A program made the position numbers and the translations under genes. The notes beneath the pieces are model-generated. The model was not told the DNA's origin. It saw only the letters and a list, made by a program, of their open reading frames with translations, and ran no database searches. 64,000 nt of DNA from Patescibacteria group bacterium (GTDB taxonomy: Bacteria; Patescibacteriota; Minisyncoccia; UBA6257; 2-01-FULL-56-20). Position 1 is the first letter of the stretch, and every line of letters begins with the position of its first letter. The stretch is taken from positions 245,687 to 309,686 of the forward strand of contig JAGXBC010000001.1 in NCBI GenBank assembly GCA_018971305.1, written 5' to 3'. Shown in pieces: positions 624-61,022 of this stretch.

Positions 624-3137
624 TTGATAATATATATGACGATGACACACAAAAAGAGCGGCCGAGGCCTCAGGAGAATATTAATTATCGGAACCACAAT
701 TATTTTGGCGCTAGGGGTTATAGCTATTCTTGTTATTTTCTATTTAGCCAAGGGGCTGCCAACAATAGGACAGATATCGGCAAGGCAAGTAAGCCAATCT
801 ACGAAAATATACGATAGGACCGGAGCCGTGCTCCTGTATGAGATAAGCAACAGCCAGGAGAGAACTGTTGTGCCTCTTCAAAACATACCCAGATATCTCC
901 AGGAGGCAACCGTCGCGGTAGAGGATGAAAATTTTTACAATGAACCTGCCTTTGATTGGAGAGGTATATTGCGAGCACTTTTAGTTGACCTAATCCATGG
1001 ACAAATATTGCAGGGCGGTTCTACTATAACCCAACAATTGGCTAAGAACGCTTTCCTAACTCCGGAGCAAACTGTTATAAGAAAGATTAAAGAGCTTATT
1101 CTCGCCGATAGATTGGATCAATATTATTCCAAAGACAAAATCTTAGAACTTTATTTAAATGAGATCCCCTACGGACCGACCATCTACGGCGTGGAAGCAG
1201 CCAGTGAAGCATTCTTCGGCAAATCAGCAAAAGACTTAAACTTGTCCGAGAGCGTTCTTGTTGCTGCCATACCAAAAGCTCCGACTTATTATTCGCCCTG
1301 GGGTAGCCACCAAAAAGACCTTTTTGACCGACAGAAATTTATCCTGGATAAAATGCTGGGTTTAGGAGAAATCACCCAGAAAGAACACGATGCGGCAGCT
1401 AAGTTCAAATTGGTTTTTGCCCCGCAAGGGCACGCAATTAAAGCTCCGCATTTCGTTATGGCGGTTCAGGATTATCTTGTGCAAAAATATGGCGAGGATA
1501 TGGTCAGAAGCGGCGGACTGAAGGTTGTAACGACCCTTGACTGGGGATTGGAACAAGTAGCGGAGCGCGCTGTCCAGGCTGGCGCCGAGAGAAACGACAC
1601 CCTCTACGACGGCAAGAATGCCGCACTTGTCGCCGAAGACCCCAAGACCGGCCAAATTCTCGCCATGGTTGGCTCCCGGGACTACTTCGCCACTTCTTCC
1701 CTGCCCGAGGGATGCACGCCGGGAGTAAACTGCCAATTTGAGCCCAACTTCAATGCGGCAACACAAGGATTGCGCCAGCCCGGGTCATCACTCAAGCCTT
1801 TTGTTTATTTAACGGCTTTCCAAGAGGGATATACTCCCGACACCATTCTCTTTGATGTTCCGACTGAGTTCGCGGCCAACAACCCTCTCTGCCCGCCGGT
1901 TCCGGACTTCAATAATATTAATAAGGAGTGTTTCCATCCTCAAGATTTTGAGGGATCTTTCTCGGGACCAATGTCATTGCGGGATGCCTTGGCACAATCG
2001 GTGAACGTCCCGGCCGTAAAAGTATTATATTTAGCCGGACTTAATAATACGGTTAAGAATGCTTACGACTTCGGCCTTACAACGCTCACGAGTCCCAATC
2101 TTTACGGATTGTCCCTTGTTTTAGGGGGAGGAGCGGTGAGACTGAACGACCTGGTTGGCGCCTATTCGGTTCTTGCGGCCGACGGCATAAAACACAGGCA
2201 ATCGCTGGTTTTAAGCGTTACGAGTTCCGAAGGACAGATATTGGAATCATACCAGGATCAAAACTCACGCGTTGCCGACACAGAGTCCGTAAGATTAACG
2301 AATAGTATTCTCTCCGATCCTCAGGCGCGAAGCGGTTTATTCCAAAACAGTCTGTCCCTTACAACCTTCCCGGGATATGATGTTGCCCTGAAGACCGGCA
2401 CAAGTAATGATTATCGTGATGCTTGGTCCCTAGGATACACACCGTCGCTTGTGGTTGGAGTTTGGGCTGGAAATAATGACAACAGACCAATGCAGAGAAA
2501 CGGCTTCAGTGTTCTCGCGGCGGTACCGATCTGGCACGATTTTATGGTAGAAGCGATTAAAAATGTTCAGCCGGAAACTTTTAATAAGCCCGACCCCCAG
2601 TATCCACAGAAACCCATATTGGCTGGCGACTACCTCCACGATAAACAGGTCCACTCTATCCTTTATTATGTTGACCGTAATAATCCCACTGGTCCGCCCC
2701 CGCAGAATCCCGAGAACGATTCTCAGTTTACAAACTGGGAAACCGGCGTTCTTGCTTGGGCCGCTCAAAATATTCCCGATTTTAAGGACTATAACCAGAC
2801 AATTCCCGATTCTAATATCGCAACAAGCACGCAGAATTTCGGTCTGCCACCGCGTGTCAGAATAGCCGAGCCGCTTACCGGAGGATTTATAGACGGTCGG
2901 CAAATAAACGTAGCCGCTAGTATAAATAGCACCGACCCCTTGTTAAAAGTTATTGCGCGCTTTAATGGGTCAACAGTTCAAGAGATATCCTTTCCACAAG
3001 GAATGACGAGTTATGATCTGCGTTTTTCATTTTCACCCAATGATACTCAGTCCCAAAATTTATTAGAGGTAGAAGCGGTTGATAAAAACAATCAAAGCGG
3101 TAAGGCGGCAACAATAATTTACGGAAACAATAATTAA
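624..3137 (+). CDS. ponA: class A penicillin-binding protein (bifunctional GT51 transglycosylase / transpeptidase, PBP1A-like)
   Basis: N-terminal TM anchor. GT51 motifs EDENFY and QGGSTITQQLAKN. A transpeptidase module follows (SSLKPF, SVN, KTGT). 837 aa. Alternative starts at 636 and 642. Confidence 0.9.
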   Translation: MIIYMTMTHKKSGRGLRRILIIGTTIILALGVIAILVIFYLAKGLPTIGQISARQVSQSTKIYDRTGAVLLYEISNSQERTVVPLQNIPRYLQEATVAVEDENFYNEPAFDWRGILRALLVDLIHGQILQGGSTITQQLAKNAFLTPEQTVIRKIKELILADRLDQYYSKDKILELYLNEIPYGPTIYGVEAASEAFFGKSAKDLNLSESVLVAAIPKAPTYYSPWGSHQKDLFDRQKFILDKMLGLGEITQKEHDAAAKFKLVFAPQGHAIKAPHFVMAVQDYLVQKYGEDMVRSGGLKVVTTLDWGLEQVAERAVQAGAERNDTLYDGKNAALVAEDPKTGQILAMVGSRDYFATSSLPEGCTPGVNCQFEPNFNAATQGLRQPGSSLKPFVYLTAFQEGYTPDTILFDVPTEFAANNPLCPPVPDFNNINKECFHPQDFEGSFSGPMSLRDALAQSVNVPAVKVLYLAGLNNTVKNAYDFGLTTLTSPNLYGLSLVLGGGAVRLNDLVGAYSVLAADGIKHRQSLVLSVTSSEGQILESYQDQNSRVADTESVRLTNSILSDPQARSGLFQNSLSLTTFPGYDVALKTGTSNDYRDAWSLGYTPSLVVGVWAGNNDNRPMQRNGFSVLAAVPIWHDFMVEAIKNVQPETFNKPDPQYPQKPILAGDYLHDKQVHSILYYVDRNNPTGPPPQNPENDSQFTNWETGVLAWAAQNIPDFKDYNQTIPDSNIATSTQNFGLPPRVRIAEPLTGGFIDGRQINVAASINSTDPLLKVIARFNGSTVQEISFPQGMTSYDLRFSFSPNDTQSQNLLEVEAVDKNNQSGKAATIIYGNNN

Positions 3138-4246
3138 TCTCCGGCTATCGGTTTTACGATATAGATATACGAATCGTCGCCAAGGGATTTTAATTGAGCC
3201 GGCTCATTCTCGCTATTAATTCCAAAAAATACCTCTTCCGAGTTTAGAATTTTTAATGCCTCCGAAAGATATCTCCAATTAAAAATAGTTTCTTTGAGAT
3301 TTCCTTGTATTTTCCCGGATAGAAGATAATTGTTTTCCCCTATTGATTGGTCTGCCGAATTAACTTCTATTGTTTTTTTATTTTCTTGGGACTTTATTTT
3401 TACTTCATTATTTCTGCTGCCAAAAACGCTAGTTAATTTCAGTGCATTAATAAACTCTTGTTTATTAAGAATAATCTCTGTGTTGAATTTCTTCGGTATA
3501 ATAGCTTTATATTCCGGGAAATTTCCCTCTATTAATCTGGAGAGTAATTCTAATTGTTCAGTTTTGAATAAAATTTGATTGTCGTCATGATAAATTTTAA
3601 TAATTTCTTCTCCGTTCAATGTTTTTTGTAATTCTTTTGCCGTTTTAAGAGGTATTAAAACTTTAAATTTTTGTTCATAATTAGTTTTAAATTCGTCTTT
3701 ATTTATTGTTTTTTCTGCTAAACGAAAGCTGTCCGTCGCAGCCAATTTTATTTCATCTATAGAAAAATCAAATAATACTGAATTTAATTCCAGTCTTAAT
3801 TCTGAAAATTGTGAGGCAATAAGGACTTGATTTAATGAATTCTTTATTATTTCTGCTTTAATTTCAATAAATTCTTTTTGATTTTTTATCTTGGGAGTTA
3901 TAGGGAAATCTTCTGCCGGGGCTCCCTGAATAACAGCTTCATAATTATCTGTTTTTATAATTAATTTATTGTTTTTATTTTCTATATTTAACCTATCACT
4001 TTCGAGGTTATTAACGATATTTGATAATAAATTAACAGGTACGGTAAACCTTCCGTTTTCTATAACTTTTCCCAGAACAGAGAAACTTGAGGCAATTTCT
4101 AGGTCTGTTGATGTTATTTTTATTTTATTCCCGTCGGTTTCTAAAAGAATATTTTTTAATATCGGTAAATTAAGATTTTCATTATTTATTCTCTCTACAA
4201 CAAAAACACCTTTTTTAAGATTATCTTTTATAACTATAAATTTCAT
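3134..4246 (-). CDS. dnaN: DNA polymerase III beta sliding clamp
   Basis: 370 aa, immediately downstream of dnaA on the same strand. Three-domain clamp-like repeat organisation. N-terminus MKFIVIKDNLKKGV is typical of DnaN. Confidence 0.8.
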   Translation of the reverse strand: MKFIVIKDNLKKGVFVVERINNENLNLPILKNILLETDGNKIKITSTDLEIASSFSVLGKVIENGRFTVPVNLLSNIVNNLESDRLNIENKNNKLIIKTDNYEAVIQGAPAEDFPITPKIKNQKEFIEIKAEIIKNSLNQVLIASQFSELRLELNSVLFDFSIDEIKLAATDSFRLAEKTINKDEFKTNYEQKFKVLIPLKTAKELQKTLNGEEIIKIYHDDNQILFKTEQLELLSRLIEGNFPEYKAIIPKKFNTEIILNKQEFINALKLTSVFGSRNNEVKIKSQENKKTIEVNSADQSIGENNYLLSGKIQGNLKETIFNWRYLSEALKILNSEEVFFGINSENEPAQLKSLGDDSYIYIVKPIAGD

Positions 4247-4364
4247 TATATTAATTAAATTATTTTTACTGTTAATACTATTAGTCCTGTTAATTAGTGG
4301 ATAAGTATTATAACTATAAATTTAACCGATTAAATATAATTTTAATTTGTTAATATACTGTTTA

Positions 4365-5711
4365 TTAACTCTTAAAAATTATATCTTTAATAGATAATAT
4401 CTCCTGATTTAAATTGGGATTTTTATTAACTTCCTGGTTTATTTTCTCATATGAGTGTATTGCTGTTGTATGATCTCTCCCCATCTTTTCCCCAATATAC
4501 GGATAAGATAATTCTGAAATATCCCTTAATAAGTACATAGCAATTTGCCTCGGTTTTACAACTTCTTTCCTGCGATTATGGCTTATAAGATCTTCTATGG
4601 AAATATTAAAGAACTCGGCTACTGCTTTAAGAATTTGGCCGTCATTAACCCTTTTAAAAGACGACTGAATGGATTTTTCTATAATTTCTTCAGCGACAGA
4701 TTCGTTTATTGCGGTTTGTTTTTTGTCCTGATAAAAAAGTATCTTTTTTAAGACACCTTCTAATTCCCTGATATTTTTCTTTACTTTTTTAGCTATAATA
4801 TCAACAACGGCATCGCTTAAAACCAAACCGGTTTCCTGCAACTTGCTTTTTATAATAGCCACACGAGTTTCGTATTCTGGATAGCCGATGTCTGTTATTA
4901 AACCCCCCTCAAACCGCGAACGTAGGCGTTCTTCAAGGGTTGGAATGGATTGCGGCGGCCTGTCTGAGGATATTATTATTTGTTTATTGGCCTCATAAAG
5001 AGCGTTGAAAGTATGGAAGAATTCCTCCTCGGTTTTTTCTTTTCCGCCTATGAATTGAATGTCGTCAATAATCAAAACATCTACGTCGCGATATTTTCTT
5101 TTCATATCTTCCATTCTTTTATTACGTATCCCCCAGACGATGTCGCTTGTGAATTTTTCTGAAGAGACATATTTAGGACGTATCTTCCTCTGGTACCTGG
5201 AATTAATTTCGTTACCGATCGCTTGTATCAGATGGGTTTTCCCGAGACCAACCAACCCATAAACGAAAAAGGGATTATACTTCGTACCGATCTCGTTAAC
5301 GATTGATGATGCTGCGGCGAAGGCCAGTTCGTTTGATGGGCCGACCACGAATGACTGCATTGTATAGCGCGGATTCAGATTTGTTTCCGGATCAACCTTA
5401 AATTCTAAACCTATTGTGTTGTCCAGTTTTTGTGTCGGAGCGCTTGGGGAGAGGGGTTCTGTCGCCTGATTCGCAACCACAAACTCTAGTTTTCTGGCAG
5501 AGGTGTCGAAATTCCTCATAATCCCAAGAAGATTTTTATTATATTTATTTTCAACCCATTCTTTAGCAAAATTATTTGGTAAAGATATATAAAACGTGCC
5601 ATCTTTTTTATCGAAGAGGCGGCTATTTTTAAGCCATGTTGCAAAATTTGCCCTGGAAAGTTGGATTTCCATTTCCCCCAACGTAGATTGCCAAAGTTGT
5701 TCCAGGTCCAT
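4365..5711 (-). CDS. dnaA: chromosomal replication initiator DnaA
   Basis: AAA+ Walker A GLVGLGKTHL, Walker B IIDDIQF, sensor motifs. C-terminal DnaA-box-binding domain (...GRDHTTAIHSYEKI...). Confidence 0.95.
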   Translation of the reverse strand: MDLEQLWQSTLGEMEIQLSRANFATWLKNSRLFDKKDGTFYISLPNNFAKEWVENKYNKNLLGIMRNFDTSARKLEFVVANQATEPLSPSAPTQKLDNTIGLEFKVDPETNLNPRYTMQSFVVGPSNELAFAAASSIVNEIGTKYNPFFVYGLVGLGKTHLIQAIGNEINSRYQRKIRPKYVSSEKFTSDIVWGIRNKRMEDMKRKYRDVDVLIIDDIQFIGGKEKTEEEFFHTFNALYEANKQIIISSDRPPQSIPTLEERLRSRFEGGLITDIGYPEYETRVAIIKSKLQETGLVLSDAVVDIIAKKVKKNIRELEGVLKKILFYQDKKQTAINESVAEEIIEKSIQSSFKRVNDGQILKAVAEFFNISIEDLISHNRRKEVVKPRQIAMYLLRDISELSYPYIGEKMGRDHTTAIHSYEKINQEVNKNPNLNQEILSIKDIIFKS

Positions 5712-9083: not shown

Positions 9084-10016
9084 TTACCTTGTTGAAAGCC
9101 ATCTAAGGAGCGGAGATACCGCCCAAGTACCTCCCATCAATGGACTCCCGGCCTTGAATGATATGGTTGTTCCGAGTAGAAGATCGTGTAATTGAGGGTC
9201 TAGAAAAAGTGACTGTGAAAACGTAGCAAAATGAGCGCCGTTCGGATCGGGTGTGAGTTTTAGCTTATAACCCGGGGTAGGAATGAGATAATCCGATGTT
9301 AAACCACTATAAAGGACTACATCTATAGTTGGAACACCAGAACAATCCCCATTAATCGTTCCGTCCATATAAACTGTATCTCCAGTGTAGGCAGTATAGG
9401 ACTGTGTTGATATCGTGTTTTGGTTGTTGGCGTCTTTCCATACTAAAGTAGCACCAGTTATGGTGCAGGTAGTTAGTGATGCTGTATTACCACAACCCTT
9501 ACTACTATTAGTATCGAGCAAAAAACAAGGATTACCACCACAACCCTGAATTGTTGAGCAGCTTGGCGCGCAGGCCAATATTCCATTAGGAGCAGCACAA
9601 CCATACATTGTTTGCCCACTCGACAAACTTACCCCTATCGACGACACATTAGCCGGAGATAGTGTGGGCAGATTGAGGTTAACAAGATTGGGGTTGATAA
9701 CGTTCAGTATAAGATATGCTCCACCAAGGAGAACTAAGCCCAATAAAGCGCTTTTTATCCAATCTTTACCCTCGCTTTGTCCGGAAGGATTGCCTGCGGC
9801 AAAGATATACTTAACTCCACCGAATACCACGGCTCCGAAAGCAAGGATGCCTCCTAGATATAAGGCATATTTGTAGAAAGCGTTAACGGTAGACGGAATG
9901 TCCGGACCTGTTGAGAAGGGGAGGCTCGTGTTGATGGAAACCGTGGCGGCTAAGGCCGAGTTCGCCGCGCAAGAGAACAAGAGCGCCATCGTTAACCAAT
10001 AAATAGATCTTTTCAT
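9084..10016 (-). CDS. decorated pilin: N-terminal VirB2/TrbC-like pilin domain (signal peptide + 2 hydrophobic helices) fused to a C-terminal Cys-rich extracellular domain
   Basis: The N-terminal ~110 aa are nearly identical to the N-terminus of the 59163..60386 protein (ATVSINTSLPFSTGPDIPSTVNAFYKYALYLGGILAFGAVVFGGVKYIFAAGNPSGQSEGKDWIKSALLGLVLLGGAYLILNVINPNLVNLNLPTLSPANVSS). The C-terminal half has many Cys. Confidence 0.6.
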   Translation of the reverse strand: MKRSIYWLTMALLFSCAANSALAATVSINTSLPFSTGPDIPSTVNAFYKYALYLGGILAFGAVVFGGVKYIFAAGNPSGQSEGKDWIKSALLGLVLLGGAYLILNVINPNLVNLNLPTLSPANVSSIGVSLSSGQTMYGCAAPNGILACAPSCSTIQGCGGNPCFLLDTNSSKGCGNTASLTTCTITGATLVWKDANNQNTISTQSYTAYTGDTVYMDGTINGDCSGVPTIDVVLYSGLTSDYLIPTPGYKLKLTPDPNGAHFATFSQSLFLDPQLHDLLLGTTISFKAGSPLMGGTWAVSPLLRWLSTR

Positions 10017-10705
10017 TATCGTCCGAAAGTTAAAATTTCGTTCGCGCTTGCCGCTTCCGACGAGTTGCGCGTGCCGTTTATGGAGAGCCCGACATCGAAC
10101 TCCGAACCTGGAGGGGTAGATGGATTTAGGTTAACCGTAAGCTTGGAAGGGTCCTCTAAATTTGTCGGAGACTGGTCGTTCACGGTCCAGGAGTAGTTCA
10201 ACGACGATGGCGTTGTCGTGTTGAAAAAATACGGGATAGCAGAAACCTGCAAAGAATTACCGGAGAAACTTCCATTGGGATAGGGCGAATAAATCACCGC
10301 CTCCGGAGAGACAAGTGGTATATCTATATTATCAACGAGGAGGTTGGTCGCGTAATTTGGGATTTGGATTCTTATGCTCGCAGTATCCGTGATTCCGTTT
10401 GGAACGAATCCTATGCTTTGCATGCCAGCTCCTCCGGCGAGGAGATCATCATTCAGATACCAGTAAACTGTTTGTTTAGAAATATCGGCAGGCTTTCCTC
10501 CGACCAAGAGCTCAAAAGACACGTTTATTAGAGAATTTGTCGTGGGCATAATTTTCCCCCGATAGTCCGCCGGCACATAGCTATTTGCCCGCCAAGTAAC
10601 AAGAAATTGGGGGGTTGATTGCTGGGCCCTCGCTTCGCGGATTAAAAGCAGGGCCGCGAATATAGCAGAGAACAATATTAAGACCGTATTAAGATTTTTT
10701 TTCAT
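10016..10705 (-). CDS. secreted hypothetical protein (signal peptide), T4SS-like operon member
   Basis: MKKNLNTVLILFSAIFAALLLIREARAQQ signal peptide. 229 aa with no recognisable domain. Its stop overlaps the start of the downstream gene at 10016. Confidence 0.5.
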   Translation of the reverse strand: MKKNLNTVLILFSAIFAALLLIREARAQQSTPQFLVTWRANSYVPADYRGKIMPTTNSLINVSFELLVGGKPADISKQTVYWYLNDDLLAGGAGMQSIGFVPNGITDTASIRIQIPNYATNLLVDNIDIPLVSPEAVIYSPYPNGSFSGNSLQVSAIPYFFNTTTPSSLNYSWTVNDQSPTNLEDPSKLTVNLNPSTPPGSEFDVGLSINGTRNSSEAASANEILTFGR

Positions 10706-10715
10706 CCTTTATTAA

Positions 10716-11756
10716 TTATAACAATTCCTTATTTTTATTCTTGTCACCGGTTTTACTCTTTCCGATTTGTTCTATTGGGACCGGTTCTTCCTCATCCTCT
10801 TGCTCTGGCTTCTTCTCGGCCTCAGGGAGCTTTCTCATAATATCCATTAATTTGCCCATTTCTTTAACTTCTCCCGGTTCTTCTTCTAACCCCATCTCCC
10901 CCTCCGATATTTCTTCGCCACCCTCCCCTCCGCCTGCTTCGATTTGTTCTCTTTCGCTTTCCTCAGCACCTTCCCCACCCTTACTTTCGCTGGGTTTTTC
11001 GTTGTTCTCTCCCTCGCCCCCAGTCGAACCCTCTCCTTTTTCTGCATCAGCACCCCGATCATCCGCACCTTCTCTACCCCCTCTTTCGCTGGGTTTTTCG
11101 CGCCCCTCTCCCTCTATTCCGGTCAGAGATTCTTCTTTCTCTGCTTCTTCCTCTTCTCCTGTCTCCAGCTCTTCGCGGCGTTCAGCTTCCCGACCTTCGC
11201 TTTTCGATTCTGATTGTTCTGTTCCCTCTCCCTCTAAGGATTCACCGCGACCCCCACCCGCTCCTTCTTCTGTAGTTCCTTCTGGTTTAGGTGTTGCACC
11301 TGCTTCCTCTGCTGTTTTCGCCGCACCGGCGGCTTCTTCTGTTGTCTTGGCTGCCTTGGCGGTTTCCTCCGCCGCTTTTTCCACCTCTTTTACCTCGGAG
11401 CCAGCTTCGTTTTCTGGTGCTGCAACTTTGGCTGCAAGTTCGGCCGCCTTTTCAAATTTAGGATGATCATCGGCATAAAATGTTAATAACAACATTGCCG
11501 TCATCCATGGAAGATCTCCTAAAACAGGCACAACTCCTCCGGCAAATCCATATAAGGCATAAATAGCTCCGACGCCCTTAAGCACCAAATACATAAGAAC
11601 AGCCGCCTCGCAAAAAGCGATTATCTTGGAAACTATTTCTCCGGCACCGGTAAACAGGAGAACAAGCTTTACTATATCAATCAAGCCAACCGGAAGTATT
11701 AGAAGTATGCGTTCTGGTAGAGAGATTTTGGGCTGCGGTTGCTGGTTTTCTTCCAT
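10716..11756 (-). CDS. membrane protein with an extreme Glu/Gly/Ala-rich acidic low-complexity C-terminal half
   Basis: Hydrophobic N-terminal ~110 aa (2-3 TM), then ~230 aa dominated by E, G, A, K (EEAEKEESLTGIEGEGREK...). The antisense Ser-rich ORF 10741..11466 is its shadow. Confidence 0.5.
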   Translation of the reverse strand: MEENQQPQPKISLPERILLILPVGLIDIVKLVLLFTGAGEIVSKIIAFCEAAVLMYLVLKGVGAIYALYGFAGGVVPVLGDLPWMTAMLLLTFYADDHPKFEKAAELAAKVAAPENEAGSEVKEVEKAAEETAKAAKTTEEAAGAAKTAEEAGATPKPEGTTEEGAGGGRGESLEGEGTEQSESKSEGREAERREELETGEEEEAEKEESLTGIEGEGREKPSERGGREGADDRGADAEKGEGSTGGEGENNEKPSESKGGEGAEESEREQIEAGGGEGGEEISEGEMGLEEEPGEVKEMGKLMDIMRKLPEAEKKPEQEDEEEPVPIEQIGKSKTGDKNKNKELL

Positions 11757-11777
11757 AATTGCATCTTAAAACTAAAT

Positions 11778-13532
11778 CTATGATTCCTGATCGTGTTCCT
11801 CTACCAATAACTGTTCCGGGTTGGTAGTAATAACGCGGTCTTCAAAATATGAAGCAACGACCTGTATGGCTACGTGCCGCTTATTCCCCGCGAAGAATAA
11901 TCCGGTGCCGACTTCGGCCCCCAAAAGAAAATTCTTTTCTGAATCAGTCAGGTCAAAAGCCTTAGCGACAATATCAATGGTTGCCGGCGCCTGTTTCAAA
12001 AGGAGTTGAAGCGAGGAATTCGTGATTATCGGCCGCCCGTTAGGCGAGCGCAGAAAGTCCTCAACGTCTTGCGTGATAGTCGTTAATCCTAAATAGTATT
12101 TACGGCAACGTTTGGCGATACCCAAAAGGAAAGAAGAACTATCCTCATTCTTCATCATCCACCAGGCTTCGTCGATGATGAGCAGGCGTTTTTTGAGCTG
12201 GGCGCGTACTAAATTCCAGATGAATCCCAAGATAATAAACATTGCTATCGGTCGCAATTCTTCCTCCAGGTCGCGGATAGAAAATATTATAAGTCGATTA
12301 TCAACATCTATATTGGTGGGCTGGTTTATAAACCCCGAGAAACTTCCCTTAGTGAACTTATAGAGGCGTTCGGCTATCGCTTTCCCTCCTTCAAGGTTTC
12401 GCAAGATAGTTTCCAGGTCTTCCAAAAGCGGAGATGTGGCGCCGGAAAAATCCTGTCCGGCAACTATTTCGCGCGAAGCATAGGTTTCTGTTATCGCTCT
12501 GTCGAGAAGGGCGTCTTCTTCCGGCTTAAGTTTTCCGAGCATGAGTTTAAGTAGGCTGGAGATGTTAACGATGTGGGAGCGCAGGACGTCGGAGGGAGAT
12601 TCGTCTTTGGGAATGGGCGGTATGTCAAAAGGGTTGATGTGTTCGTGCGAAGAAAGGGAAATATTAAAAATTGTTCCGCCCAGGGTATTGGAAAGTTTTT
12701 GATATTCGTTTTCGGGATCAATAACTATTACGTTTTCCGTATCCGTCATTAACGATCTTATTATTTCCAGTTTGGTGGCATATGATTTTCCCGAACCGGC
12801 TTTGGCAAAAACCACTTGATTGGCGTTCTCCAAAGAGAACCTGTCGAAAATCACCAGGCTGTTATTATGCAGGTTTATGCCGTACATAATTCCTTCATTG
12901 GAAGACAGGTCTTCGGAAACAAAGGGGAAGAAAGATGATATCGGTCCGGAATTCATCGGTGTATAGATCTGGATCTTGTCGTCGCCCGTAGGCATTATGG
13001 AGAATAATCCCTCCAGTTGCTGGAAGATGGCTGGTTTTAAATAGATAAGTTTTGCCTCCATAATTGATGTTAGTTTGGATTCTATCCGCGCCAGTTCTTC
13101 CTGTGAGTCGGCATAAACAGTTATATATACTCCTGTGTCAAAAAGTTTTTCCTGCGATTGTTGTAATGTGTCGCGCAGGGTTTCCACGTCGCGGAGGGCC
13201 GTCTCGAGCATTGGATCACGCACTAATCCCTTATCGGCGTTATCGTTTATTTGTGATTCAAGTTGGGCCGATTTTCTCCGAAGGTTTTTGAGTGCCGAGC
13301 CCGTGTCTATTGGATTTACAAAGATAGAGATATCAAATAGATTCGGAAGATCTATTATCGGTTCAAACCAGCCGGTGGAAAGATAGCGCGGATAAGAGAA
13401 AACGAAGAACGTCTTGGCTATTTTATCCCCGATCTTTAAGTAATTTTGGGCGACCTCCAATCCGGCCGGAGCGATAATCTTGGTTACGTTCTTAAAATCA
13501 CTATTTTGGCCTTCGTTTTTATTATTGGGCAT
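11778..13532 (-). CDS. virB4: VirB4/TrbE/CagE-family T4SS ATPase (central + ATPase domains)
   Basis: Walker A FAKAGSGKSYATK, Walker B LLIIDEAWWMM. The conserved VirB4 middle region is present (FFVFSYPRYLSTGWFEPII). 584 aa. Confidence 0.85.
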   Translation of the reverse strand: MPNNKNEGQNSDFKNVTKIIAPAGLEVAQNYLKIGDKIAKTFFVFSYPRYLSTGWFEPIIDLPNLFDISIFVNPIDTGSALKNLRRKSAQLESQINDNADKGLVRDPMLETALRDVETLRDTLQQSQEKLFDTGVYITVYADSQEELARIESKLTSIMEAKLIYLKPAIFQQLEGLFSIMPTGDDKIQIYTPMNSGPISSFFPFVSEDLSSNEGIMYGINLHNNSLVIFDRFSLENANQVVFAKAGSGKSYATKLEIIRSLMTDTENVIVIDPENEYQKLSNTLGGTIFNISLSSHEHINPFDIPPIPKDESPSDVLRSHIVNISSLLKLMLGKLKPEEDALLDRAITETYASREIVAGQDFSGATSPLLEDLETILRNLEGGKAIAERLYKFTKGSFSGFINQPTNIDVDNRLIIFSIRDLEEELRPIAMFIILGFIWNLVRAQLKKRLLIIDEAWWMMKNEDSSSFLLGIAKRCRKYYLGLTTITQDVEDFLRSPNGRPIITNSSLQLLLKQAPATIDIVAKAFDLTDSEKNFLLGAEVGTGLFFAGNKRHVAIQVVASYFEDRVITTNPEQLLVEEHDQES

Positions 13533-13568
13533 ATATTTATTTGTGCCGATAGTTAGGTGGTTAAAAAA

Positions 13569-14243
13569 TTATAATCCAGATTTTTCGGAAGCTATATTCA
13601 CACCTTCTTTCTCAACGGTTTCCGGATTGTAAAAATTATAGAAGAGCTCTATTAATTGTTCGTTGTTCAGGACGACGGCTTCCAGCCCTATCGATAAAAG
13701 CCCCTCCAATACTTGGTTCACGCGCTGTTTCAGCTGGGCAAGGTTTTCATTGAAACGCATCATCGTTTCCGCCTTAGCCTTTTCTTCGGCAGCATCATTC
13801 TTTTTGCCGAAGAATGGCAGGATTTTACTTATGGATTCCTGGTTTGGAAGCATCAGGGGGGAAAACGGCACAACCACCAGAAAGGCCTTTTCCATGATGG
13901 CATTTTTTTGTACGAAACCGCGCACAAATTCTATGTACTCCTCCGTTTGGTTCTGCAGAAGCGGCGACTTCTCTTTGGCTTCGTATTTAGCAAGGCCGCT
14001 CAAGTATTTTTCTATATTTACCTTCCGGGAATGGATGATGACTTGCATCGGAAAATCCAGGCCATTCAAAAAATTTTGGTAGGCCTGCGTTACGATGTTC
14101 TGCTCCATTTCAGATTTCAGGGCAAAATTAATTCCGCTTACCATAATAACCTGGCGCAGACTGCCGTTTTTCATTACCACCGTGTCTTGCACAATGTCTT
14201 TTATAGACACCAGGTCTTGAGTGTTCGCAAAATTTTTAGGCAT
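13569..14243 (-). CDS. VirB4 N-terminal domain (CagE/TrbE/VirB N-domain) as a separate ORF, i.e. a split VirB4
   Basis: KNGSLRQVIMVSGINFALKSEMEQNIVTQAYQNFLNGLDFPMQVIIHSRKVNIEKYL resembles the VirB4 N-domain (DGSL..v..v.G.d....s.ee...). It lies 36 nt upstream of the ATPase ORF on the same strand. Confidence 0.55.
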   Translation of the reverse strand: MPKNFANTQDLVSIKDIVQDTVVMKNGSLRQVIMVSGINFALKSEMEQNIVTQAYQNFLNGLDFPMQVIIHSRKVNIEKYLSGLAKYEAKEKSPLLQNQTEEYIEFVRGFVQKNAIMEKAFLVVVPFSPLMLPNQESISKILPFFGKKNDAAEEKAKAETMMRFNENLAQLKQRVNQVLEGLLSIGLEAVVLNNEQLIELFYNFYNPETVEKEGVNIASEKSGL

Positions 14244-14284
14244 CTTTTTATTTTATTATACCTTTTAATTACCCAATTCTAAAT

Positions 14285-14782
14285 TTATCTGTAATCAATG
14301 CGCCGTGCCGCCTCGCGATCTCCTGTGACGTGCTGGAATATTTGGTACTGATCATCAACCTTCTGCATGAATTGTTGGTTGGATACTTTTGTGCCGCTTT
14401 GCAGGTTTTTCCAGGCGCTGCGTAGCGCCGCTCCAGAAACAATATTCTCTAGTGAGAAATTACCAGACACTCCAAGCCCATCACTACCCTTGACCGTTTC
14501 CGGATTTTCCGGCTGCCAGACGTACACCTGCGGTTTCCAATAAAAACCGAAGGCGCTTAGAACCACGCTCGGTAGGGCTCTCCCCTCCACTCTTATAAAT
14601 GCCAGAGCCAGAGATCCGCCTACAAGGAAAATAGAAAGCATGGCAAAAAGCCATGGCTGTACTGTGAAATATAGGAGGAAACTAAGAATTCCTGCAGAGC
14701 CTACGTAGACGAACTGTTTAATAGTGAAGGGACCGACGAGCTTGTCTTCCGTTTGAATAAATTGAGGGACCTGAAATTGCAT
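14285..14782 (-). CDS. VirB3/PrgI-like small membrane protein
   Basis: 165 aa with two adjacent TM helices (FVYVGSAGILSFLLYFTVQPWLFAMLSIFLVGGSLALAFI). It sits immediately upstream of VirB4, as PrgI/VirB3 does in Gram-positive-type T4SS. Confidence 0.5.
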   Translation of the reverse strand: MQFQVPQFIQTEDKLVGPFTIKQFVYVGSAGILSFLLYFTVQPWLFAMLSIFLVGGSLALAFIRVEGRALPSVVLSAFGFYWKPQVYVWQPENPETVKGSDGLGVSGNFSLENIVSGAALRSAWKNLQSGTKVSNQQFMQKVDDQYQIFQHVTGDREAARRIDYR

Positions 14783-14899
14783 TGTTTTTAGGTTTTACCC
14801 ACCTGCCTCGTCTGCCGACTGGCAGGGCTATTTTAGGTGTTTGGCTTTTAGTTGATCTTAGCGGGGGCTTCCTAAAAGCCAAAAGTCAAAACCTAAAAG

Positions 14900-16156
14900 C
14901 TAGGTGTTTATTGGAGGCTTCGGCAGATTAACGTCTGATTGGTTTAGAGCTTGCGATGGCGACTGATCGCCGGGAATAGCTTTATTTTTTTCCAATATTT
15001 TTATTTTCTCAAACTCGCCCATTGTATCTTTAATTTGCGGTAAAGATTGTGGCGGTTCTGCTCTTTTGATTATCGGTGATCCTGCAAAGAGCGGTCTGAC
15101 TTGTTCGTTATTCCCCTCTATTTTTTTTGTTCCGGTGTCGTTCGCGATGGGCTGTGGCATGTCACCCACAATCGTCTTTAGTCCGGTGTAGTGTACTACC
15201 CTGGGCTGTTCTTGTTTCTGGGCAATAATTTCTGGTTGTGTGTTTGGGGCAGATGGCTGTTGGCTCTTTATATCTTTTGTAATTGGAGAGAAAACAAATT
15301 TATCCATTTTTGCCACCGGCGGACGTGGTGGTGGGGCTGGCTTCATTACTCCTTTATTTGTCGTGAATGAAACGGAGCCGCCGATTTCTATTTTTGCCGG
15401 TCCAAGCGGAGCTTGTCTGTCCTTAGTTTCTGAAATTTTCTGTTCGGGGATATTTATTCTGAACTCCGAGGCCGATTTTGTAGGAGAAGCCGGAGCTTCT
15501 TCGCGATGAAGCATTGCCGGGGGCGGTTCGTCGGGGGATTCTTCGGTTGATATTTTTTCTGTCCCATAATCAATACGTTCCGCTTTCTGGTTCTGTATTC
15601 CTTGCCGCCTATCACTCACCGCTTGTTGCTGGGCGGGAGATTCAGTGAGACGTGACGGTGGTATTTTCTTTCCCAACTCCATTCTCTCAAATTCCCCGAT
15701 GGGCTCTTTCTGTTTTTCCACCTGTAGTGTGGCGGAGAGCGTGGGTTTTGCAGAGACGAATGTTTCGCCGATATCTATCCCTCCCGGTCGGCGGATTTCT
15801 TCCATTACCCTCGGAGCGATCATATCAAATTTTGAAATCGGTTCATGCACAGACATAATATCGGCTTTCAGGGGATCAAAAATTCTCTTGTTTATCGCGC
15901 CGGCTATTGTGTCTGCGGCCTGCGGTACGATTCCCAACTCTTTAAGCTCTCCCGCCATGTCTTCCGGATGGATGAATCCCAAAATCACGTGGCCGAAAAT
16001 CCTTACCACATAATTTATTTGTTCTTCTGGCAGATGCTCATTGCCGCAAGTTTTCCAAATGAAATCGGAGTTCGCTTCCGAGACCATCGCTTCGCGCAAA
16101 ACATCCGGGATATTATCCCATCGTTCCAGCGCTTGATTTTGTGTGACTGTTACCAT
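14900..16156 (-). CDS. hypothetical protein with a globular N-domain and a long Pro-rich tail (T4SS-like operon member)
   Basis: 418 aa, no TM. The C-terminal two thirds are rich in P/Q/E/K (KPAPPPRPPVAKMD, PPINT). Confidence 0.45.
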   Translation of the reverse strand: MVTVTQNQALERWDNIPDVLREAMVSEANSDFIWKTCGNEHLPEEQINYVVRIFGHVILGFIHPEDMAGELKELGIVPQAADTIAGAINKRIFDPLKADIMSVHEPISKFDMIAPRVMEEIRRPGGIDIGETFVSAKPTLSATLQVEKQKEPIGEFERMELGKKIPPSRLTESPAQQQAVSDRRQGIQNQKAERIDYGTEKISTEESPDEPPPAMLHREEAPASPTKSASEFRINIPEQKISETKDRQAPLGPAKIEIGGSVSFTTNKGVMKPAPPPRPPVAKMDKFVFSPITKDIKSQQPSAPNTQPEIIAQKQEQPRVVHYTGLKTIVGDMPQPIANDTGTKKIEGNNEQVRPLFAGSPIIKRAEPPQSLPQIKDTMGEFEKIKILEKNKAIPGDQSPSQALNQSDVNLPKPPINT

Positions 16157-16164
16157 GTTTTATT

Positions 16165-18738
16165 TTATGGTCTATTATTTCCGCCGCCTTGGTTTCCGCC
16201 TCCTCCACCACCGCTACCTCCGCTACCAGGTCCGCCACCGGAGTATTCCCATGTCCCGAAGTAATTTTGTAATGTTCGTTCGTGGCCTTTGAGAGCACCT
16301 TCCAGTTGCCGTAATTTTATTGCGGCTGCTGCCTCGCCCTCTTTGTCCCCGGATGCTTTAAACGCATCTACGACCCCCTGCTGTGCATTAATGAGTTGTA
16401 TTAATAAATTAGGAATCTTTTCCATTCCGGTAGTAGCGAGCGTTTGCGAATTCATATTCCTTACTATGGTGGGTATGATGCGTTGGTTATTTTCGGTGAT
16501 TGCCGAAAGAAGTTCTTGGGTGGTGAGTGGGTGTTCTGCGTAGGCCTTTTTGCCGAAGATTGCGTTGGCGTTCATCCTTGCGGCGTCAGTGGCGGTAAGT
16601 TTTGTGGCGAATTCCTTCATGGATTCTCTAAGCAGTTGTGCTGCCGATATTTCTGTTTGTCCTGTTTGAAACATTTTTTTGGCCCATGTTTGTCCTGCTT
16701 GGAATATTTCATTTCCATCCTCATCTTTTACGGCTTCAGCTGGCTTAATTTTCGGGCTGTTCTGTTCTAGATACTCCCATCTAGCCTTATCTCCAGCAGA
16801 CTTGGCATTGGCTTCTTCTGCTGCCTCTCCCGCTTCCGTCGCGCGTTTAATAGTATCAATACTATTTTTGGCCTTATCTCCGGCGGCTTTTGCGTTATTC
16901 TCGGCTTCAGTTTGAGGGCGACCACGTTTAAGAGATGCCTTCCTCTCTGCTTCATACGCTTTGTCATATGCATTAGTAAGAACTTTATCGTGTGCAGTAG
17001 CGAACGCCTGATTAGTCATCATGGAGTACCCCGCGTTCATCACCGACACATTCCCCGGGGCCTTTGCTATATTGTACGCTTCCTCATATTTTTTATCAGC
17101 CTCGGATATTAACGGTTTCAAGGCCTTTTCCGATATTCTTGTATTCGTCGTGCTACCGGTTAGCTTATCGTAATCACCGAGCATCTTCTCCTGCCTAAAT
17201 CTTTTGATGGTGTCCATGTTGGACATAAACTCTCCGGCAGTGCTTTTGCCTCCATCAATCTTAGTATCATTGGATATCTTTTTGCTTTCTTTCAGCATTT
17301 CTATCGCCGCAAACTTCATTTCGGTTGTAAGGTTTCCAGAGTTAAGGAGTTCTGTTAACTCCGAGGAGCTTTTGCCTTTTAATCTGTCCTTCGCGCCTTC
17401 TACCATTCCCTCGTTGCTGGTTACCTTACCTAGACCGAGAGCTGTTTCCCGCTCTAGCCTGCCGGCAATAAATCCGGCTGCACCTCCCACAACCGGGATT
17501 TTCCTTATTTGCTTACTTACGGCGCCTTCTCGTAGATGCTTTTCAAGAACCTCGCCGCCCGCTTTCTGATATGCGAGCCGCCCACCCTTCTTGGCCTGCT
17601 TGCCGACGTATCCGCCGATTCCGGTTGCCGCGCTTTTAACCGCCGCCATTCCCGCGCTCGCGCCCATAATTCCTAAAGAGTTCGCCGCGATAAGCCCACC
17701 GACGGTCAGACCAAGGAGCACGAAGTCACCTAAAATATTCGGGATAAGTACTTTGAAAGTGCCGCTGAAGAATTGAGATACGGCACTTTGCGCGTTACCA
17801 AGGTTAACATTCGGCGTCGGTTCTGTTTGGGTTGAGATTCTATGGATTCCTGGTGCCATGATGACGACAAGATATAGAAAGAAAACAACTATCGGGGGGA
17901 AAAGCGCCCACCTGATGAAATTACTCCACCATTTTGTGAAATTTCCCCGTAAAGCAGGGAAAACCCAGCAAAGCCAGGCGAACGGCAGAAGAATGAAAAG
18001 TATGGACAAGTACACGTATCTTATTAAGAGCATTATGGCAAGAGTTCCTAAAACAATTACAATGCCGACAAGGGTTATTAGGGCAAAAACCATTGCCACT
18101 AAGATCACGATTACGCTTCCAGCGCTACTTCCTAGGGCGTCGGCGGTTCCCAGGTTCGAACCCCCGCTACTAGACAGCATTACTTGTGGCTGGAATAGGA
18201 TGGCGATTGCATTATTAAACCCCTGACCAGAAAATTGGTCTAAGAAAAAGTTAGTCAAACCATTTGCCGCGCTTACCAGCATGCCGCCGATGACCAATCC
18301 GAAGTTGACGAGGATAGCCATGAAGACAAGCTTCCAGAGGATTTGTTTAAGGCCGTATGTTTGGCTGCGGAGAATCGTAGCGAGAGCTATAACTATGATT
18401 CCCAGAACGAAACCAAGGTTGGCGATAGAGAGGGATGTGGCAAAGCCGGTTTGCACGAGGGCCGTATTTACTATACCCCTATTGATATCAAGGAGTAATT
18501 TTATCGCCCAACTCTCCACGGCTATAGCCAAGCTGGCAACCGTGGCCATAACGTACACGATCCCGTAAACAAGATTATTTACTACTGAGCTACCTATATC
18601 TTCTAAACATCCCGTTGCTGTAGCGCACCATGCTTTTGCCTGATGCGGAGATAATGCAAAAACCGCAAGCGCGATGAATAGTGTCGTTATAACCAATTTC
18701 GTTTTTCTATTTTTTGCTATTCGTGTAAATGTAGGCAT
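16165..18738 (-). CDS. VirB6/TrbL-like polytopic membrane protein with a long hydrophilic C-terminal domain and a Gly-rich tail
   Basis: Signal peptide plus about 7-8 TM helices in the first ~370 aa. An ~450-aa K/E/A-rich coiled-coil-like region follows. Terminal GGGPGSGGSGGGGGGNQGGGNNRP. Size and topology resemble Gram-positive VirB6 analogues (PrgH/TcpH). Confidence 0.55.
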   Translation of the reverse strand: MPTFTRIAKNRKTKLVITTLFIALAVFALSPHQAKAWCATATGCLEDIGSSVVNNLVYGIVYVMATVASLAIAVESWAIKLLLDINRGIVNTALVQTGFATSLSIANLGFVLGIIVIALATILRSQTYGLKQILWKLVFMAILVNFGLVIGGMLVSAANGLTNFFLDQFSGQGFNNAIAILFQPQVMLSSSGGSNLGTADALGSSAGSVIVILVAMVFALITLVGIVIVLGTLAIMLLIRYVYLSILFILLPFAWLCWVFPALRGNFTKWWSNFIRWALFPPIVVFFLYLVVIMAPGIHRISTQTEPTPNVNLGNAQSAVSQFFSGTFKVLIPNILGDFVLLGLTVGGLIAANSLGIMGASAGMAAVKSAATGIGGYVGKQAKKGGRLAYQKAGGEVLEKHLREGAVSKQIRKIPVVGGAAGFIAGRLERETALGLGKVTSNEGMVEGAKDRLKGKSSSELTELLNSGNLTTEMKFAAIEMLKESKKISNDTKIDGGKSTAGEFMSNMDTIKRFRQEKMLGDYDKLTGSTTNTRISEKALKPLISEADKKYEEAYNIAKAPGNVSVMNAGYSMMTNQAFATAHDKVLTNAYDKAYEAERKASLKRGRPQTEAENNAKAAGDKAKNSIDTIKRATEAGEAAEEANAKSAGDKARWEYLEQNSPKIKPAEAVKDEDGNEIFQAGQTWAKKMFQTGQTEISAAQLLRESMKEFATKLTATDAARMNANAIFGKKAYAEHPLTTQELLSAITENNQRIIPTIVRNMNSQTLATTGMEKIPNLLIQLINAQQGVVDAFKASGDKEGEAAAAIKLRQLEGALKGHERTLQNYFGTWEYSGGGPGSGGSGGGGGGNQGGGNNRP

Positions 18739-18746
18739 CGCAGTTT

Positions 18747-59159: not shown

Positions 59160-59162
59160 CTT

Positions 59163-60386: not shown

Positions 60387-60404
60387 TAAAATAAAAATTT
60401 ATTT

Positions 60405-60962
60405 ATGAAAAAATTAATTATTATCGCGGTCATTATTATAATAATTGTAGCGGTATTATTCTTGGTTTTTATTGGGAGAAGGCAGACCCAGCAGCAAGTT
60501 GGCGGCTCTGGTAGTGTTCGGCCACTTCCAGTTCCCGTCTCCTTGCCACAACCTACCGATCAGACAATTTCTCTGCAGACGAGCCAGGGTTCTATTGTCT
60601 TGAAAAATTTTTATAATACGGCGGTGGTAGACAATGGCCCCGGCGCTGTTAATGATATAAATATACTTATGAGATCTGATATCGGAAATAAATACCACTA
60701 TGAGATGGGGTATGAAAGGCAGGTCAGTAGATTCGACATCGTTTTAAACACCTATTCTTTGGAAGATGCAATTAAATATAGGAAGGAGGCCGAGGCTGAT
60801 TTCCTAAATATACTTGGGATCAACGAACCGGATGCGTGCAAACTTAACGTTGACCTCATAGTTAATCCGACATATGTGTCTATCGGCAATTATCCTCCTG
60901 GATTCCGATCGGAAACTAACTATGGTCTAAGTTTTTGTCAAAGCGGTTTGCCGTTGCAATAG
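60405..60962 (+). CDS. membrane-anchored hypothetical protein
   Basis: N-terminal TM IIIAVIIIIIVAVLFLVFI, then a ~150-aa extracytoplasmic domain. It starts 19 nt after the previous gene. Confidence 0.45.
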   Translation: MKKLIIIAVIIIIIVAVLFLVFIGRRQTQQQVGGSGSVRPLPVPVSLPQPTDQTISLQTSQGSIVLKNFYNTAVVDNGPGAVNDINILMRSDIGNKYHYEMGYERQVSRFDIVLNTYSLEDAIKYRKEAEADFLNILGINEPDACKLNVDLIVNPTYVSIGNYPPGFRSETNYGLSFCQSGLPLQ

Positions 60963-61022
60963 ATTATCCATTGATTTAATTAGTGAATTGAGTTATGGTC
61001 CACCTGTTGTACAATAAAAACA

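Follow-up and report, generated by a model that had tools for sequence, protein, structure and literature searches.

Pilin hairpin segments of two distant, inverted fusion genes in a Patescibacteria genome are probably kept alike by recurrent gene conversion and purifying selection

Two genes encoding pilin fusions lie near opposite ends of the window, as the whole 64,000-nucleotide stretch of DNA analyzed here, from an ultrasmall bacterium of the Patescibacteria, is called. Gene A (9084..10016, minus strand; NCBI KGJ89_01320) encodes a protein of 310 amino acids in which a signal peptide is followed by a PF18895 pilin hairpin, a Cys-rich module and a near-orphan, beta-rich C-domain. The start codon of gene A overlaps the stop codon of the preceding gene in a T4SS operon (10016..20618, minus strand), which gene A closes and which comprises orf623, a VirB6/TrbL-like gene, orf418, a PrgI/VirB3-like gene, a VirB4 split into N and C parts, orf346 and orf229. 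The dnaN and dnaA genes (3134..5711, minus strand) adjoin this region, and gene A and the T4SS operon are therefore situated beside the probable replication origin. The C-terminal region of gene A (residues 127-310; 9087..9638, minus strand) was described by homologue search and structure modeling; among 1.84 billion representative proteins searched, its only homologue besides itself was P0014, and its AlphaFold2 model was of low confidence (pLDDT <50).

Gene B (59163..60386, plus strand; NCBI KGJ89_01575) encodes 407 amino acids and is arranged as a signal peptide, a PF18895 pilin hairpin, two Cys modules of ~45 residues each and an SLT_3-like, lysozyme-like domain. It belongs to a pilin array (57381..62869, plus strand) that, besides gene B and orf185, encodes four short PF18895 pilins and a 592-residue protein whose pilin domain is C-terminal. 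Gene B starts 3 nt past the stop codon of the preceding pilin-fusion gene. A terminator-like hairpin is located beyond the array (62892-62919), and a promoter scan gave no more matches than the shuffled expectation. The lysozyme-like (SLT_3-type) C-terminal domain of gene B (59847..60383, plus strand) carries the motif ...C.VESAGG...SGSD.C...SGGLWQIN.... It scored 16.7 bits (E = 0.01) against SLT_3 (PF18896), below the curated threshold of 27, which the aligned relatives P0057 (37.2 bits) and P0077 (35.6 bits) exceed. The catalytic-type motif (E-S ... G-L-x-Q-I-N) is conserved, VESAGG...GGLWQIN of gene B being in register with ESGG...GLFQIN of the relatives. In the AlphaFold2 model of gene B (pLDDT 64), which gave nothing significant when compared with the PDB by Foldseek, the lysozyme-like region spans pLDDT 47-88 and itself lacks a significant Foldseek or PDB sequence match; the family profile returned only noise against PDB sequences.

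Both proteins are members of the T4SS_pilin (VirB2-like) family as judged by profile, predicted hairpin and gene context. The PF18895 profile scores were 41.2 bits for gene A and 40.4 bits for gene B, above the curated cut-off of 26.6. AlphaFold2 predicted, after an N-terminal hydrophobic helix, a two-helix hairpin in each protein (gene A, helices 40-72 and 77-107; gene B, 43-75 and 80-110; pLDDT ~75-88). Foldseek gave no significant match, the best pilus match being 8dfu with E = 4.4. Gene A lies directly 3' of the operon for VirB6/TrbL-like, PrgI and split VirB4 components, and gene B is found among five further PF18895 genes.

A repeat search of the window recovered an inverted pair with arms of 331 nt that are 91% complementary, separated by a spacer of 49,291 nt. 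Arm 1 (9618..9948, minus strand) codes for the mature pilin hairpin of gene A (approximately residues 24-133) and arm 2 (59240..59570, plus strand) for that of gene B (approximately residues 27-136). No second long inverted repeat occurs in the window, the other listed pair measuring 40 nt at 73%. The first-pass annotation had described a near-identical inverted repeat of ~310 bp at 9639-9947 and 59241-59549; self-comparison of the window confirms that it is present, and these coordinates correspond to a 103-codon core that was found again by tblastn. An 85-nt string quoted there as common to both copies occurs once on the plus strand, at 9728, and its reverse complement once, at 59376. The arms differ at 29 of 331 nt and contain exact runs of up to 86 nt, the next being 51 nt. 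The 86-nt run (9727..9812, minus strand, matched by 59376..59461, plus strand) comprises the codons for KYIFAAGNPSGQSEGKDWIKSALLGLVL and would be the longest tract of conversion, or substrate for crossover, of the pair.

Alignment showed that the similarity of the arms ends sharply on either side and that the flanks lack similarity. The upstream border coincides with the predicted signal-peptide cleavage sites (ALA|ATV in gene A, VFA|TVP in gene B) and the downstream border falls just after ...PANVSS, such that the repeat codes exactly for the mature VirB2-like pilin hairpin (PF18895) of the two genes. Neither the signal peptides nor the C-terminal regions of A and B are related to each other, in agreement with the complete divergence outside the block that had been reported earlier.

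Within the hairpin, protein and DNA similarity follow different patterns. Over a core of 95 codons the two proteins are identical, and the genes show synonymous changes in 17 of the 95 codons and no non-synonymous ones (dS = 0.32); for the 74-codon core used in comparisons between lineages the values are 100% amino-acid identity, dS 0.38 and dN 0. The changes are distributed as a mosaic: dS is 0 in codons 8-23, 45-72 and 97-102, 0.6 in codons 24-44 and 1.26 in codons 73-96. A permutation test of clustering, weighted by synonymous sites, yielded P = 0.03 when the longest identical run was considered and P = 0.0125 when the two longest were taken together; these P values are modest (0.01-0.03). 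By simple arithmetic, omega values of 0.04-0.09 would leave a probability of roughly 0.003-0.10 that no non-synonymous change is found at dS 0.38. Purifying selection alone could account for part of the amino-acid identity, since a control pair, P0014/P0013, keeps 34 hairpin residues identical at merely 74% nucleotide identity. The first-pass annotation had called the exchange recent, a description that suits the identical tracts but not the block as a whole, where dS is ~0.32 and such tracts alternate with patches of dS 0.6-1.3.

The two loci were also found in other lineages. A metagenome contig of 459,847 bp from a distant lineage (Ga0335072_10000010) carries both of them, inverted and ~72 kb apart. 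The gene order at its first locus is prgI-virB4-orf229, A-type gene, orf430-jag-yidC-dnaA, and at its second MBL-gyrA-SBP-pilin, B-type gene, orf185 and three pilins; the genes to either side of each locus are conserved, and the loci are thus orthologous by synteny. The A-type and B-type genes of this contig (L028 and L031) are 99.4% identical over 335 nt, a stretch bordered just as it is in the window, and are 100% identical in both amino acids and nucleotides over the 74-codon core. Over that core the syntenic orthologues (A of the window against L028, B of the window against L031) share only 69% of their amino acids, with dS >2.8 (saturated) and dN 0.22. Lineage-specific residues, e.g., KYALYL...VVF and SPANVSS, are common to A and B only. 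For a third lineage, the B-locus genes L019/L020 and the A-locus gene L021 are 89% identical over 353 nt (dS 0.56); L019 and L021 come from different samples and may not share one genome. In the MAG CAZADL the loci L002 and L004 are 80% identical (dS 1.05), and the values for this MAG and the third lineage indicate that homogenization is episodic. The contigs of the MAG DATJLR01 that carry the 3' halves of A and of B both break off inside the pilin module, with an overlap of 141 nt, which is assembler behavior at an exact repeat. The C-terminal domains found at the A and B syntenic slots differ from lineage to lineage, and the earlier idea of a shared pilin stalk with swappable tip domains therefore holds on the evolutionary scale. 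An exact-protein look-up with genes A and B gave no match and hence no alternative assembly of the source genome.

Taken together, the sequence patterns make it probable that the repeat represents the hairpin-coding segments of two old, syntenic paralogues that are kept alike by recurrent short-tract gene conversion together with purifying selection. Conversion is inferred because the paralogues within a genome are closer to each other than the syntenic orthologues are between lineages, and a mosaic of tracts with sharp homology borders accompanies this pattern. The hairpin segments of A and B would pair and recombine non-reciprocally, repeatedly and in short tracts, presumably through RecA-type intrachromosomal gene conversion, while strong purifying selection would act on the hairpin. 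Conversion would halt where homology ends, on one side at the signal-peptide cleavage site and on the other where the unrelated C-terminal domains begin. The same T4SS/pilin machinery may insert and handle both proteins, with the Cys-rich C-domains displayed outside the cell, and identity of the module would be advantageous since both fusions must fit one assembly; it may have been selected in this manner or may be a neutral by-product of recombination. Of the two processes proposed initially, gene conversion or cassette exchange, the former agrees with these data (paralogues 100% identical in amino acids at dS 0.32-0.38, orthologues 69% at dS >2.8), whereas a new duplication or cassette swap does not suit a pair that is old and conserved.

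Other explanations for the likeness of the two modules have to be weighed against this one. A single recent event in the lineage (duplication of the module, one domain swap or a fusion), followed by ordinary divergence without ongoing exchange, could yield 91% identity with synonymous changes only, if the copies diverged to dS ~0.3 under strong selection. We regard it as very unlikely: the A and B loci have their own types of C-domain and their own neighbors in several lineages, which indicates that the pair is old; independent lineages each exhibit their own within-genome similarity (99.4%, 91%, and 89%); and the differences occur in clusters and tracts, not evenly. Extreme purifying selection or co-adaptation that holds the protein modules identical in the absence of any DNA exchange would account for dN = 0 and is in line with the 34 conserved residues of the control pair, yet selection on protein cannot hold synonymous sites, and the contrast between dS 0.32-0.38 for paralogues and >2.8 for orthologues already contradicts it. 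The exact runs of 86 and 51 nt also span many four-fold degenerate codons, and the residues KYALYL...VVF and SPANVSS are confined to A and B of the same lineage, all of which leaves an explanation by selection only scarcely credible. An equally negligible chance is assigned to an assembly artefact, in which reads from one copy of the module would have been wrongly built into the other or the repeat would have collapsed. The source is a metagenome-assembled genome and related assemblies break at the repeat, but a collapse or chimera predicts identical copies, whereas 29 differences are observed, and those in the 95-codon core are all synonymous and in frame with each gene's own flanks. As the same pair moreover recurs in an independent assembly of another lineage, the collapse that the first-pass annotation had raised as an objection is improbable.

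It had also been proposed that crossing-over between the copies would invert the segment between them. The arms are indeed inverted and 49.3 kb would flip, but inversion finds no support so far: the window and contig Ga0335072_10000010, from the one other lineage with both loci on a single contig, share the same arrangement, and thus a fixed inversion is not observed. Under conversion between paralogues a reciprocal crossover leading to inversion would be possible, although as a fixed state it has not been seen. Because A and B have the same mature pilin module, only their signal peptides and operon context would trade places on inversion, not "tips" on a "stalk". An origin-symmetric inversion was suspected from a cumulative GC-skew minimum at ~32 kb, close to the arm midpoint at 34.6 kb; it was dropped as dnaA/dnaN are at 3.1-5.7 kb, housekeeping genes occupy 32-36 kb and no cluster of DnaA boxes is present (19 matches in the scan against 13.5 expected).

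A distinct view of the arms is that they serve as crossover sites of an invertible segment or phase switch, with frequent flips of the 49-kb origin-proximal segment that would exchange which C-domain gene and downstream genes lie behind the T4SS operon and which lie behind the gyrA-SBP-pilin operon. The inverted orientation with exact runs of 86 and 51 nt, the 99.4% identity over 335 nt in the other lineage, the breaks of contigs from several assemblies at the repeat and, from the ORF list, a segment without a strong strand bias for inversion to upset are all compatible with this possibility. So is contig L025, in which the pilin module connects the 5' flank and signal peptide of the B locus with the 3' flank of the A locus. 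Either a genuine inversion or a chimeric assembly may underlie this contig: it is a lone contig of 3 kb, a chimera formed in the assembly graph at an exact repeat of >300 nt would account for it just as well, and a search for further copies of its hybrid protein found that one contig only. Against a switch, one configuration is common to the window and contig Ga0335072_10000010 of the distant lineage, and partial contexts elsewhere are parental, with orf229 upstream of A-locus genes and SBP and a pilin gene upstream of B-locus genes. Among the Pfam-annotated neighbors of both arms no recombinase gene adjoins either of them, and the sole integrase (46938-47822), XerC/D-like, is conserved in the other lineage. 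Both mature proteins would be unchanged by inversion, save two residues near the N-terminus. A switch of this kind is consequently considered unlikely. Somewhat more doubtful still is a fuller version, in which the repeats would be a working switch whose RecA crossover flips, in a fraction of the cells, 50-70 kb of origin-proximal DNA, re-wiring the pilin-fusion gene and the array behind the T4SS operon; L025 would then be its first glimpse and conversion the trace of frequent pairing of the arms.

The A and B loci bear on the biology of the group. The T4SS and VirB2-like pilins are essential for epibiotic life in the sole genetically tested Patescibacteria species (PMC12857230). Some Patescibacteria "pilins" appear to be carriers in which a constant hairpin bears varied Cys-rich domains, predicted to be extracellular, that are lysozyme-like here, with CHAP-like and VanY-like hints elsewhere. 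Two such carriers occupy conserved sites, the end of the T4SS operon and the pilin array, and their hairpins, alike within a genome and diverging between genomes, point to a shared assembly partner. A "missing VirB1" function is noted for the Patescibacteria T4SS in a passage of PMC12102498, and the fusion of a pilin to a lysozyme-like domain is a candidate for it. On the practical side, the repeat breaks metagenome assemblies near the replication origin and can produce chimeric contigs.

The VirB2-like pilins of the Patescibacteria T4SS and their arrays were surveyed by Quinonero-Coronel et al. 2025 (PMC12102498), as consulted in part, and reviewed in PMC12857230. The present loci resemble those arrays in their PF18895/VirB2-like family and in a monoderm-type T4SS (VirB4, PrgI, VirB6) beside dnaA together with a tandem array. 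They differ in that an array gene and a T4SS-operon gene share a module that is 100% identical; the survey reports 25% mean and 54% maximum amino-acid identity for paralogues within an array, and its passages found by term search say nothing of enzymes fused C-terminally to the pilin domain or of exchange from one locus to another. Concerted evolution of Patescibacteria T4SS pilin modules was not described in the literature searched, and the mechanism, ordinary in itself, is apparently undescribed for the T4SS VirB2-like pilin family.

Conversion within a pilin family has a counterpart in Neisseria, where silent pilS cassettes diversify the expressed variable region of pilE, a type IV pilin. 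The N-terminal module is conserved and the C-terminal parts vary in both cases; however, the Neisseria protein is unrelated to VirB2, and conversion here would homogenize the conserved module in two expressed genes. In the R64 shufflon the Rci recombinase switches C-terminal segments of PilV by means of short repeats and clustered segments, and alternative C-terminal "tips" on a constant pilin/adhesin N-terminus are thus swapped by DNA inversion. The loci described here, in contrast, have no adjacent recombinase, their coding repeats of 331 bp are 49 kb apart, and inversion would leave the mature proteins unchanged. Closer to the present case are tufA and tufB, distant inverted paralogous coding repeats for which chromosomal inversion is an occasional by-product. 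In Salmonella and E. coli they reportedly undergo RecA-dependent conversion and concerted evolution, as Abdulkarim and Hughes in 1996 and Hughes in 2000 are said to have described. Both systems involve inverted coding paralogues, far apart, that are homogenized by gene conversion (probably so in ours), but in tuf conversion covers the entire gene and both copies specify the same protein, whereas here a single domain of two otherwise unrelated fusions, known from sequence alone, would be affected. Long-lasting concerted evolution of prokaryotic paralogues is reported for 26 gene families in the parts of PMC6053082 consulted, and the A/B pair resembles these families in that paralogues within a genome are closer than orthologues across lineages, repeatedly and over the long term.

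Comparison of the window with itself returned one long inverted repeat, with arms of 331 nt at 9618-9948 and 59240-59570 that are 91% complementary (29 mismatches; longest exact runs of 86 and 51 nt) and separated by a spacer of 49,291 nt; an 85-nt string quoted in the first-pass annotation starts at 9728, and position 59376 carries the reverse complement of that string. The first arm lies inside a 310-aa ORF (gene A; 9084-10016, minus strand) and the second inside a 407-aa ORF (gene B; 59163-60386, plus strand). NCBI lists the products as hypothetical proteins, that of A as KGJ89_01320 and that of B as KGJ89_01575, on a 319,838-bp contig of a MAG labelled 'Patescibacteria group bacterium'. 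Both match the T4SS_pilin family (Pfam PF18895; 41.2 bits for A and 40.4 for B, cut-off 26.6), and their common block was modelled by AlphaFold2 as a two-helix hairpin (pLDDT about 75-88). In the pairwise alignment the similarity starts at the predicted signal-peptide cleavage sites (between ALA and ATV in A, VFA and TVP in B) and stops after ...LSPANVSS; A and B could be aligned in no part of their signal peptides or C-terminal regions. The earlier description of a near-identical inverted repeat confined to one module is thus confirmed as written.

Gene A is next after orf229, whose stop codon is overlapped by its start codon, in a minus-strand T4SS operon that also encodes a VirB6/TrbL-like protein, PrgI (VirB3-like) and a split VirB4, and it is followed on its 3' side by orf430, jag, yidC, dnaA and dnaN. 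VirB4 occupies two ORFs within 11778-14243 (minus strand; N-terminal part 13569-14243, ATPase part 11778-13532), a conserved feature rather than a frameshift because the same split occurs in three related loci (L028, L002 and L048). The operon also encodes a low-complexity Glu/Gly/Lys-rich protein of 346 aa (10716-11756, minus strand) without a Pfam match, its gene carrying a 99-nt direct repeat (10960-11048 and 11059-11147, 72%). Gene B starts 3 nt past a 592-aa gene ending in a pilin domain, and after it come orf185 and a set of four short PF18895 pilins; a strong terminator-like hairpin (62892-62919, plus strand; 12 pairs, 7 of them G-C, with a T-rich tail) comes directly after the last pilin gene of this array. 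The 592-aa protein (57381-59159, plus strand) has the reverse architecture, with Cys-rich repeated modules first and the PF18895 domain C-terminal (aa 505-573), and within its gene 57921-58055 is repeated directly at 58380-58514 with 89% identity. A monoderm-type T4SS adjoining dnaA together with a VirB2-like array is the layout described for Patescibacteria by Quinonero-Coronel et al. (PMC12102498), and that of the window is the same. At 3134-7685, dnaN and dnaA on the minus strand and then rnpA-like, yidC and jag on the plus strand directly adjoin the T4SS operon, as reported for many Patescibacteria; the cumulative GC-skew minimum, however, is near 32 kb and no DnaA-box cluster was found, so these signals do not give the exact position of the origin.

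Over the 95 codons shared by A (residues 32-126) and B (35-129) the proteins are identical, with synonymous changes in 17 codons and no non-synonymous change (dS = 0.32). These changes are clustered: in the numbering of the codon comparison, dS is 0 at codons 8-23, 0.6 at 24-44, 0 at 45-72, 1.26 at 73-96 and 0 at 97-102, and when changed codons were permuted in proportion to their own synonymous sites, the longest identical run had P = 0.03 and the two longest P = 0.0125. The block thus combines young tracts with older ones and is not uniformly recent; the gene conversion proposed in the first-pass annotation is largely right.

A metagenome scan detected two inverted matches about 72 kb apart on the contig Ga0335072_10000010 (459,847 bp). 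The first (L028) is flanked by prgI-virB4-orf346-orf229 on the 5' side and orf430-jag-yidC-dnaA-dnaN on the 3' side, and the second (L031) by MBL-gyrA-SBP-pilin and by orf185 and three pilins; they represent the A locus and the B locus in a second lineage, in which DnaA, GyrA and VirB4-C are 72%, 74% and 79% identical to those of the window. Their hairpin segments share 99.4% identity over 335 nt and, as in the window, the common block opens at the signal-peptide cleavage site and closes where the unrelated C-domains begin. Over a 74-codon core, the paralogues of the window are 100% identical in amino acids (dS 0.38, dN 0) and those of the second lineage in amino acids and nucleotides (dS and dN 0), whereas the orthologues (A with L028, B with L031) share 69% of their amino acids (dS above 2.8, dN 0.22). 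At conserved loci in at least two lineages, then, paralogues are far more alike than orthologues, which is the pattern of concerted evolution. Elsewhere, L019/L020 (B locus) and L021 (A locus), on contigs from different samples, share 89% of 353 nt (dS 0.56), and L002 (A locus) and L004 (B locus) of MAG CAZADL show 80% nucleotide identity (dS 1.05), so that lineages differ in how long ago their two modules were last homogenised.

Purifying selection by itself may keep some of the protein sequence constant but has no hold on synonymous sites: in a negative control from one sample, P0014 (A locus) and P0013 (B locus), 34 hairpin residues are identical with only 74% nucleotide identity. We infer that recurrent short-tract gene conversion between the sole homologous parts of two old paralogues, alongside strong purifying selection on the module, accounts for all the sequence facts. 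Given omega values of about 0.04-0.09 in other pairs, roughly 2-6 non-synonymous changes were expected at dS 0.38 and none was observed (P about 0.003-0.10, by hand arithmetic from these values); this slight shortfall hints at selection for keeping the two modules identical, as might arise if both fusions were handled by, or built into, one T4SS/pilin assembly.

In protein searches the hairpin was found fused to diverse C-terminal regions in hundreds of proteins, the closest outside the genome of the window having about 78% identity in the hairpin. In B, a tandem pair of ~45-aa modules with conserved Cys (aa 139-228; 59578-59846, plus strand; Y.CDSN...YSDLSSC...), missing in the B-type orthologues P0002-P0004 and L031, stands between the hairpin and a lysozyme-like domain that aligns with SLT_3 (PF18896) members, with ...ES.GG...SG.D.C...GL(F/W)QIN conserved; B is sub-threshold for the SLT_3 profile (16.7 bits, E = 0.01) and the aligned relatives are above it (37.2 and 35.6 bits). 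The C-terminal region of A (aa 127-310; 9087-9638, minus strand) comprises one Cys module and a beta-rich region for which no confident structure model was obtained, and its sole detectable homologue among 1.84 billion representative proteins is P0014 (E = 3e-9), which occupies the A locus of a different lineage (L048). The B slot holds SLT_3-like domains in the window, L031 and L004, sub-threshold CHAP-like (E = 0.006) and VanY-like (E = 0.003) hints in L019/L020 and L018 (= P0013), respectively, and a Cys/His-rich domain without family assignment in L003. The A slot holds the Cys module and beta-rich domain in the window and P0014, Cys-rich repeats in L028 and short tails in L021, L027 and L029/L030; overall, the contents of this slot range from a 17-aa tail up to regions of 180-270 aa. 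All enzyme hints are peptidoglycan-related and, except for SLT_3 in the relatives, below Pfam thresholds. The C-terminus of VirB2-type pilins is outside the membrane, and the Cys-rich C-domains of A and B would be expected there by analogy. According to the published survey (PMC12102498) VirB1 is missing in most of these genomes, and a lysozyme-like domain anchored by a pilin, as predicted for B, could plausibly take its place.

Reciprocal recombination at the two arms would flip the segment 9949-59239, as the first-pass annotation pointed out from their geometry, but such inversion is unproven: the window and Ga0335072_10000010 have the same configuration and, among readable partial contexts, all are parental bar one, with orf229 upstream of the A-locus genes of L002, L021, L027, L029, L030 and L048, and SBP plus a pilin gene upstream of the B-locus genes of L003, L004, L018, L020 and L026. 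The exception, L025 (Ga0181517_10037349, 3,095 nt), begins with 548 nt that match the B locus of L003 (9707-10254) and L026 at 100% identity, covering the last part of the preceding pilin gene, a B-type signal peptide and the pilin module, and continues as an A-locus 3' flank (17-aa tail, orf430, jag, yidC). This hybrid protein was recorded on that contig only; L025 may mark a genuine inversion junction, or it may be a chimera formed in the de Bruijn graph where the repeat is exact. The repeat is long and exact enough for short-read assemblies to break there, near the probable replication origin, as seen from contig ends: in MAG DATJLR01, the same species as Ga0335072_10000010, the A-3' (127,689 bp) and B-3' (133,378 bp) half contigs both end within the hairpin (L015 1-155 and L017 1-155; 141-nt overlap, k141 in the contig names). 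Among other contigs, L026 stops precisely where the repeat stops, and L043 begins within it.

Inversion would exchange signal peptides and operon context and, judging from the sequences, leave both mature proteins essentially unchanged, and for that reason it offers no route to new tips on the stalk. The stalk with swappable tips proposed earlier fits on an evolutionary scale, where one slot carries different C-terminal regions in different lineages, but not as a product of inversion, and a cassette switch driven by inversion is unproven. No recombinase gene is next to either arm; the only integrase of the window (46938-47822) is XerC/D-like and conserved in the Ga0335072_10000010 lineage. In the window a pnp-NYN-xerC block falls between A and B (42966-47822); in the Ga0335072_10000010 lineage (L017 6546-10101) it is found beyond the pilin array and in the opposite relative orientation, a rearrangement that did not go via the pilin repeat.

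Long-lasting concerted evolution in prokaryotes has already been surveyed (PMC6053082), and the maximum within-array pilin identity is 54% in the published pilin survey (PMC12102498). No report of Patescibacteria VirB2-like fusion modules evolving in concert between a T4SS operon and a pilin array was found in the literature searched; we rate the mechanism as known and its occurrence between these fusions as without report in that literature. Gene conversion between inverted paralogues is classical, and the nearest analogue of genes A and B is the tufA/tufB pair.
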